DNA from: Escherichia coli
GTDB lineage: Bacteria; Pseudomonadota; Gammaproteobacteria; Enterobacterales; Enterobacteriaceae
Assembly (NCBI RefSeq): GCF_046105845.1
Contig: NZ_CP151004.1
Strand: one strand, 5' to 3'
DNA: 64,000 nucleotides
Shown here: one piece after another, positions 46,883-47,641 of the stretch
Position numbering within the stretch: position 1 is the first letter of the stretch
Layout: every line of letters starts with the position of its first letter
The notes under the pieces: generated by a model
Database searches by the model: none
What the model was told of the DNA's origin: nothing
The model's input: only the letters and a program-made list of their open reading frames with translations
Translations under genes and position numbers: made by a program

Positions 46883-47641
46883 ATGAAACAAACACAACGT
46901 CACAACGGTATTATCGAACTGGTTAAACAGCAAGGTTATGTCAGTACCGAGGAACTGGTGGAGCACTTCTCCGTCAGCCCGCAGACTATTCGCCGCGACC
47001 TCAACGAACTGGCAGAGCAAAACCTGATCCTGCGCCATCATGGCGGCGCGGCGCTGCCTTCCAGTTCGGTTAACACGCCATGGCACGATCGTAAAGCCAC
47101 CCAGACCGAAGAAAAAGAGCGCATCGCCCGCAAAGTGGCGGAGCAAATTCCTAATGGCTCAACGCTGTTTATCGATATCGGCACCACGCCGGAAGCGGTG
47201 GCGCACGCGCTGCTTAATCACAGCAATTTGCGCATTGTCACCAACAATCTCAACGTCGCTAACACGTTGATGGTAAAAGAAGATTTTCGCATTATTCTCG
47301 CCGGTGGCGAATTACGTAGCCGCGATGGTGGGATCATAGGCGAAGCGACGCTCGATTTTATCTCCCAGTTCCGCCTTGATTTCGGCATTCTGGGGATTAG
47401 TGGCATCGATAGCGACGGCTCGCTGCTGGAGTTCGATTACCACGAAGTTCGCACCAAACGCGCCATTATTGAGAACTCGCGCCACGTTATGCTGGTTGTC
47501 GATCACTCGAAATTTGGCCGTAACGCGATGGTCAATATGGGCAGTATCAGCATGGTAGATGCCGTCTACACCGACGCCCCGCCGCCAGTAAGCGTGATGC
47601 AGGTGCTGACGGACCACCATATTCAACTGGAGCTGTGCTGA
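46883..47641 (+). CDS. glpR: Glycerol-3-phosphate regulon repressor GlpR (DeoR family)
   Basis: 252 aa. N-terminal HTH with sugar-phosphate binding C-terminal domain. Confidence 0.94.
   Translation: MKQTQRHNGIIELVKQQGYVSTEELVEHFSVSPQTIRRDLNELAEQNLILRHHGGAALPSSSVNTPWHDRKATQTEEKERIARKVAEQIPNGSTLFIDIGTTPEAVAHALLNHSNLRIVTNNLNVANTLMVKEDFRIILAGGELRSRDGGIIGEATLDFISQFRLDFGILGISGIDSDGSLLEFDYHEVRTKRAIIENSRHVMLVVDHSKFGRNAMVNMGSISMVDAVYTDAPPPVSVMQVLTDHHIQLELC

Follow-up and report, generated by a model that had tools for sequence, protein, structure and literature searches.

The window analysed here is a stretch of 64,000 nucleotides of an Escherichia coli chromosome, corresponding to the reverse complement of K-12 positions ~3.543-3.604 Mb. 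Around glpR it is 96.9% identical to K-12, and the best complete E. coli genome at this locus reaches 99.2%. Two pairs of genes on opposite strands end inside each other in the window, glpR with rtcR and ugpQ with yhhA. The coding sequences and the bases they share are as follows.

46883-47641, plus strand: glpR (252 aa), DeoR-family repressor of the glycerol-3-phosphate regulon and last gene of glpEGR (Pfam DeoRC/HTH_DeoR); stop codon TGA at 47639-47641
47623-49221, minus strand: rtcR (532 aa), sigma-54 activator of rtcBA (Pfam RtcR and Sigma54_activat); stop codon TGA, the complement of TCA at 47623-47625
15203-15946, plus strand: ugpQ (247 aa), glycerophosphodiester phosphodiesterase and last gene of ugpBAECQ (Pfam GDPD); stop codon TAG
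15933-16373, minus strand: yhhA (146 aa), DUF2756 protein (Pfam DUF2756); stop codon TAA, the complement of TTA at 15933-15935
47623-47641, both strands: tail-to-tail overlap of glpR and rtcR, 19 bp, with third codon positions facing each other
15933-15946, both strands: tail-to-tail overlap of ugpQ and yhhA, 14 bp

A preliminary description of this DNA had reported the two overlaps, and both proved exact to the base in the ORF listing and in the raw sequence; in each pair, each stop codon lies within the coding sequence of the partner. Because a 3'-3' overlap is set by the stop codons alone, which are fixed by the open reading frames, no re-assignment of starts or stops can remove it. The same overlaps are annotated in K-12 (NC_000913.3), between rtcR (3558268..3559866) and glpR (3559848..3560605) and between yhhA (3586943..3587383) and ugpQ (3587370..3588113), and PGAP-annotated E. 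coli strains carry the identical two. The junction segments were found in 5424 of 5426 complete E. coli genomes, and the overlapped bases are invariant in all E. coli copies read (n=5 for glpR/rtcR, including the window, and n=4 for ugpQ/yhhA). Both overlaps are already in the reference annotation and nothing essential about them is new.

Pfam matches, RefSeq/PGAP annotation and synteny in other genera identify both pairs as genuine opposite-strand coding genes. The matches are strong in all four ORFs and the shared bases lie beyond every one of them: DeoRC ends at residue 231 of 252, GDPD at 238 of 247 and DUF2756 at 105 of 146, and RtcR has no match beyond residue 442 of 532. Just the last 3-6 residues of each protein are encoded by shared bases, the RtcR tail ...QDQHSSS* being encoded antisense to the glpR codons I-Q-L-E-L-C-stop. 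The glpR gene is intact in the window and is a frameshifted pseudogene in K-12 MG1655, where the inactivating single-base deletion maps to window positions 47033-47034.

Convergent overlaps of this kind are not rare. A genome-wide count published in 2007 found 58 in E. coli (Lillo & Krakauer, PMC2174442). Of the window's convergent junctions between ORFs of at least 150 aa, two of seven overlap, the remaining gaps measuring 42-505 bp; in the equivalent K-12 region two of ten convergent junctions do so. As a null for overlap length, we read antisense into the 3' ends of 50 window genes in all three phases until the first stop. The median run into the neighbour was 71 nt, and overlaps as short as 14 and 19 nt belong to the lower 13-17% of these runs. 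The two overlaps are not above background, and they are short rather than long.

Other features of the window were recorded. Between glgP and glpD there is a chaperone-usher fimbrial operon of seven genes (36273-43464, plus strand), where K-12 has only a yzgL remnant; its order is fimbrial subunit, PapD chaperone, usher, two subunits, second chaperone and adhesin-like subunit. The 505-bp gap between this operon and the 3' end of glpD contains an Rfam match to the ES036 (CssrF) sRNA (43843-43885, plus strand), scoring 46.8 bits, above the gathering score. The K-12 island yhhZ-yrhA(IS1E)-yrhD-yrhB is missing from positions 18239-19002; ggt is directly followed by the GNAT acetyltransferase gene yhhY (18299-18865, minus strand) and then by RyhB (18938-19002, Rfam 83 bits), an order shared with Salmonella and other genera. 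The convergent gap between malQ and gntT (59500-59546) is 47 bp here and 110 bp in K-12, probably through the presence or absence of a repeat element.

The context of ugpQ was compared in E. coli and twelve other genera. The order ugpC-ugpQ, followed by yhhA on the opposite strand and then ggt, is kept in all 13, and the distance between ugpQ and yhhA varies: -17 in Citrobacter amalonaticus, -14 in E. coli, -11 in Pseudenterobacter, -4 in seven genera including Salmonella and Enterobacter, +11 in Scandinavium, +18 in Raoultella and +24 in Klebsiella quasipneumoniae. In the alignment, the common state is a double-stop tetramer, ...CAGCCTTAA. Relative to this junction the Escherichia lineage has a 7-nt gap, which moves the ugpQ frame to a TAG 10 nt later, and the C-terminus of YhhA, PLKTIxP*, is unmoved despite this frame shift. 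The comparison is what would be expected from stop-codon drift at a junction without spacer, not from a conserved overlap. In E. coli A16 (otter; locus L008, 1117-1933) the junction is lost to a deletion that fuses truncated remnants of ugpQ and yhhA, and ugpE is also frameshifted.

The glpR side was followed by a scan with GlpR as query over one genome per GTDB species, from which 80 Enterobacteriaceae loci were kept. The C-terminus of GlpR, ...QLELC*, is present in 78 of these 80 species genomes, and rtcR stands opposite glpR in few lineages only. The 19-bp overlap with the tail QHSSS* occurs in three Escherichia species and in the Klebsiella oxytoca group. The overlap is 35 bp in Intestinirhabdus alba, where a 7-nt deletion shifted the rtcR frame, and 4 bp (TTAG) in Superficieibacter electus. 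Since glpR abuts malT in most Enterobacteriaceae, with gaps most commonly of 6 to ~60 bp and one 4-bp overlap, rtcR is a lineage-restricted neighbour, the rtc module lying between glpR and malT in some lineages only. Whichever gene stands opposite, the 3' end of glpR is closely packed against it. The RtcR tail is a labile appendage, its sequence dictated by the constrained GlpR codons on the opposite strand. The phase found in E. coli, with third positions facing, is the one that constrains both genes least. Some constraint on the tightness of the junctions may exist, as the 19-bp overlap does not differ between Escherichia and the K. oxytoca group and ugpQ and yhhA stay within 24 bp of each other in 13 genera.

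Several variants were seen around this junction. In several genera with malT opposite glpR there is a short GC hairpin, ACGGCGT...ACGCCGT, formed in part by the last malT codons (YGV*; examples among the GlpR loci L010-L089 are L060:3745-3800, L076, L038 and L034). In Superficieibacter sp. 1612_C1, glpR is followed by rtcB-rtcA, and rtcR could not be detected. One rtc deletion is common to 565 of the 5426 complete E. coli genomes; it takes out rtcB completely, together with the bulk of rtcR and the 5' portion of rtcA. A 399-bp 3' remnant of rtcR that still overlaps glpR by 19 bp is kept in these genomes. This remnant equals window positions 47623-48021 (in E. coli 20AR0734, locus L007:1824-2610, which includes part of rtcA). 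Two hairpins near the junction were set aside. One, at 47629-47655, carries the glpR stop in its loop in E. coli and is broken in Escherichia whittamii and Klebsiella. The other, a long hairpin at 47672-47729 (z -4.8 in E. coli), is not conserved in other rtcR-bearing genera and has a covariation term of ~0; it is terminator-like on the rtcR-sense strand, yet lies upstream of the rtcR stop.

Consensus scans found no intrinsic or bidirectional terminator motif at either overlap. The features that bear on where the transcripts end lie inside the partner genes.

47875-47950, plus strand (glpR-sense RNA): C-rich, G-poor stretch antisense to rtcR, a candidate rut-like Rho loading region by composition
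47950-48000, plus strand: published Rho termination region inside rtcR; K-12 3559514 corresponds to window 47975, 334 nt past the glpR stop
15846-15885, minus strand: candidate intrinsic terminator for yhhA, within ugpQ codons ~215-228 and 48-87 nt past the yhhA stop
15968-16007, plus strand: weak terminator-like hairpin inside yhhA, 22 nt past the ugpQ stop, with a 12-13 bp stem and the tail CGUUUCUCCU

Adams et al. 2021 (PMC7815308, Supplementary file 2) class the Rho termination region at K-12 3559514 as antisense to rtcR; it is on the minus strand of K-12, which is the glpR-sense strand. In the underlying DirectRNA-seq data, obtained with and without bicyclomycin, there are 154 reads upstream (over 800 nt) and 29 downstream of this position without the drug, against 153 and 256 with it. 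Read-through in this published experiment, whose position we mapped to the window, therefore goes up under Rho inhibition. The Rho score is 8.9 (p 2.7e-27); it is a window-based score, and the RNA could originate from an antisense promoter inside rtcR rather than from a glp promoter. It is thus documented that glpR-sense RNA reads antisense into rtcR and has its own Rho-dependent terminator there. Downstream of the glpR stop, the 50-nt windows that begin at 47875 and 47900 have C:G ratios of 2.7 and 1.8, and the position of this stretch just upstream of the published termination makes it a candidate for Rho loading. The literature examined records nothing on rtcR-sense transcription reading into glpR, and our search retrieved nothing specific on the rtcR/glpR overlap or on a glpEGR terminator. 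Regions of this type are common, about half (51.5%) of the Rho regions in that study being antisense to genes (PMC7815308).

For the other junction, ExcludonFinder (PMC12288877, Table 1) lists 165 convergent pairs with overlapping transcripts in half or more of 58 MG1655 RNA-seq samples; yhhA-ugpQ is one of these pairs, and rtcR-glpR is absent from the list. The candidate terminator of yhhA consists of a GC-rich hairpin, CCCCAGCGC...GCGCUGGGG (15885-15854), followed on the yhhA-sense strand by UUUAUUGA (15853-15846). Its stem has 9-10 bp and its tail is 5/8 U; it was not among the hits of the consensus scanner, and the U-tract differs from genus to genus. The 111-nt segment that contains it has a z of -3.7, and the stem is present in 13 genera with two compensated pairs. 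We set the real ugpQ sequence against synonymous recodings sampled at the codon usage of ugpQ itself, in 32 windows tiling the gene. All 13 genera have a hairpin stabler than its recodings (z from -1.2 to -2.6), and its window has the most negative mean z of the 32 (-1.73, against 0.04 +/- 0.64 for controls) and is the sole one to stay negative throughout the genera. The proline codon of the hairpin is CCC, which E. coli uses rarely, in 11 of 13 genera, and the arginine codon of its 3' arm is CGC in all 13. The codons involved encode a conserved protein motif, PQRAxELLRWG, which accounts for some of the hairpin's conservation, and the hairpin would fold on the ugpQ mRNA strand too. Taken together, this is moderate evidence that the element is under selection as an RNA structure. 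We infer that it terminates yhhA, and it could equally serve the ugpQ mRNA. A further window of ugpQ, codons 38-58 (15316-15378), is stabler than its recodings in 12 of 13 genera, with a mean z of -1.51.

The curated Term-seq lists, covering three growth conditions, show no 3' end that is antisense to ugpQ, primary to yhhA or located at either junction (PMC7815308); yhhA expression may be too low in these conditions. The same data hold a reproducible 3' end internal to yhhA, at K-12 3586994 on the plus strand (window ~16322, minus strand), 51 nt into the gene and just after the signal-peptide hairpin region; it is Rho-insensitive (score 0.65). A half-life event reported in ugpQ (PMC10349824) is uninterpretable. 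The hairpin that follows the ugpQ stop (15968-15997) has a poor U-tract, lies in an indel-rich, repeat-like C-terminal part of yhhA and differs between genera, and is a weak terminator candidate at most.

We consider that glpR/rtcR and ugpQ/yhhA are two ordinary, already annotated overlaps of real genes, produced by neutral drift of stop codons, with transcripts that end inside the neighbour (probability about 0.85). At junctions with essentially no spacer, stop codons would drift neutrally and so give short overlaps. The labile lengths, 4, 19 or 35 bp for rtcR/glpR and -17 to +24 for ugpQ/yhhA, were counted in favor of such drift. Since there is no intergenic terminator, each transcript ends within the coding sequence of its neighbour. 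The glpEGR mRNA would, on the published data, extend ~330 nt antisense into rtcR and be terminated by Rho once it is untranslated and the C-rich stretch has been transcribed. The yhhA mRNA most likely stops ~85 nt inside ugpQ, at the conserved GC-rich hairpin and U-rich tract, and the ugp mRNA would run into yhhA and end at weak hairpins or through Rho. The overlap of 3' transcripts would then simply result from tight packing; the partners may interfere mildly with each other through it, and nothing indicates a dedicated regulatory device.

The preliminary description had proposed that these overlaps leave no room for independent terminators and imply read-through antisense transcription into the partner gene. 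The read-through is borne out by the published glpR-sense RNA inside rtcR (PMC7815308) and by the listed overlap of the yhhA and ugpQ transcripts (PMC12288877). The lack of room is wrong, because terminators can lie inside the partner coding sequence, as does the Rho site of glpR in rtcR. Lillo & Krakauer already argued in 2007 that the rho-independent terminators of such pairs must sit in the partner, and such terminators were predicted for 23 of 116 E. coli genes in convergent overlaps, that is 20% (PMC2174442). The conserved candidate hairpin with its U-rich tract, yhhA-sense inside ugpQ, also speaks against the claim.

Other readings of these junctions were weighed. YhhA is an uncharacterised, Q-rich protein and glpR is a pseudogene in MG1655, as would suit an annotation artefact in which one gene of each pair was mis-called or wrongly truncated and no real proteins overlap. 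However, the strong domain matches and the synteny across genera apply to all four genes, independent pipelines annotate the four identically, the stop codons that define the overlaps are read directly from the sequence and the glpR of the window is intact, so that this explanation is hardly credible. A second reading treats the pairs as functional excludons, kept since convergent transcription lets one gene repress the other: Pho-induced transcription of ugp would silence yhhA and constitutive transcription of glpEGR would damp rtcR, through colliding RNA polymerases and cutting of the duplex by RNase III. It draws on the presence of yhhA-ugpQ in the published convergent list (PMC12288877), on the 334-nt reach of glpR-sense RNA into rtcR and on the tightness of both junctions across genera. 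The criterion behind that list is transcript overlap only, however, which is trivially satisfied by expressed pairs with overlapping coding sequences, and rtcR-glpR does not appear on it. Overlap length is not conserved, partners are exchanged, with malT opposite glpR in most genera, and Rho confines the antisense RNA to about the last fifth of rtcR; we regard repression of this kind as quite improbable.

It is conceivable, though we doubt it, that the 3' parts of ugpQ and rtcR have been selected as terminators of their neighbours, an intrinsic hairpin in ugpQ serving yhhA and a Rho site in rtcR serving glpEGR, so that the junctions would be a compressed functional design and not neutral packing. 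The recoding comparison, in which the ugpQ hairpin window stands out in all 13 genera, would fit such dual coding, as would the U-rich tract found 3' of the hairpin on the yhhA-sense strand only and the rtcR remnant spared by the rtc deletion, which spans the C-rich stretch and the Rho position. Against it, no 3' end is mapped at the ugpQ hairpin in the Term-seq lists of PMC7815308, the U-tract is imperfect and variable between genera, and the hairpin could reflect the protein motif or serve the stability of the ugpQ mRNA. As the rtc deletion probably arose once, the kept remnant says nothing on selection, and a second ugpQ window, at codon 38, is also negative. That the ugpQ hairpin and the 3' end of rtcR are selected, dual-coded terminators that in addition give small couplings of the excludon type is unlikely. 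Were it true, the hairpin of ugpQ codons 217-226 would be a conserved intrinsic terminator of yhhA written into the coding sequence of an enzyme. The 3' end of rtcR would be a Rho terminator insulating rtcR/rtcBA, or malT where rtc is deleted, from constitutive glpEGR transcription. The two junctions would also couple the Pho and glycerol-phosphate pathways to their neighbours, a result of modest interest.

The importance of the junctions is limited: the overlaps stand in the reference annotation, and both their class and the question of terminator placement were treated in 2007. What glpR/rtcR and ugpQ/yhhA offer is a concrete, well-documented case in which overlap of coding sequences does not preclude independent termination. 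As a by-product, the analysis yields a testable candidate terminator encoded inside ugpQ.

Several known systems can be compared with these junctions. The excludon concept reportedly goes back to Sesto et al. in 2013. In the sense of ExcludonFinder, where yhhA-ugpQ is listed (PMC12288877), excludons are opposite-strand neighbours with overlapping 3' transcripts, and such overlap is on record for this pair and for glpR-sense RNA entering rtcR (PMC7815308). The documented likeness is transcript overlap, and mutually exclusive expression and RNase III processing would be the further marks of an excludon; rtcR-glpR is unlisted, and the overlap already exists at the level of coding sequences, so that overlap of the transcripts is trivial. 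Bidirectional intrinsic terminators between convergent genes are said to have been described by Ju et al. in 2019, and with them our junctions share convergent gene ends that use the same termination space. They differ in that no single hairpin is flanked by both an A-tract and a U-tract at either junction, the hairpin internal to ugpQ being U-rich-flanked on one strand only. The match is closer with Rho termination of antisense and 3'-extended RNAs in E. coli (Adams et al. 2021, PMC7815308; Peters et al. 2012 as cited there): translation of the glpR-sense RNA ceases at the stop, a C-rich, G-poor stretch follows, and the RNA is terminated antisense to a gene in a way that is sensitive to bicyclomycin. 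We know of no difference from that system, the region being one entry in the published table. Finally, both pairs resemble the convergent overlapping pairs of E. coli (PMC2174442) in all respects considered. Their opposite-strand coding sequences run into each other by only a few codons, these short overlaps change through shifts of the stop codon, any terminators must fall in the partner, and orthologous junctions show ancestral 4-bp double-stop tetramers, TTAA or TTAG. Nothing substantive separates them from that class, and they are two of its ~58 E. coli cases.
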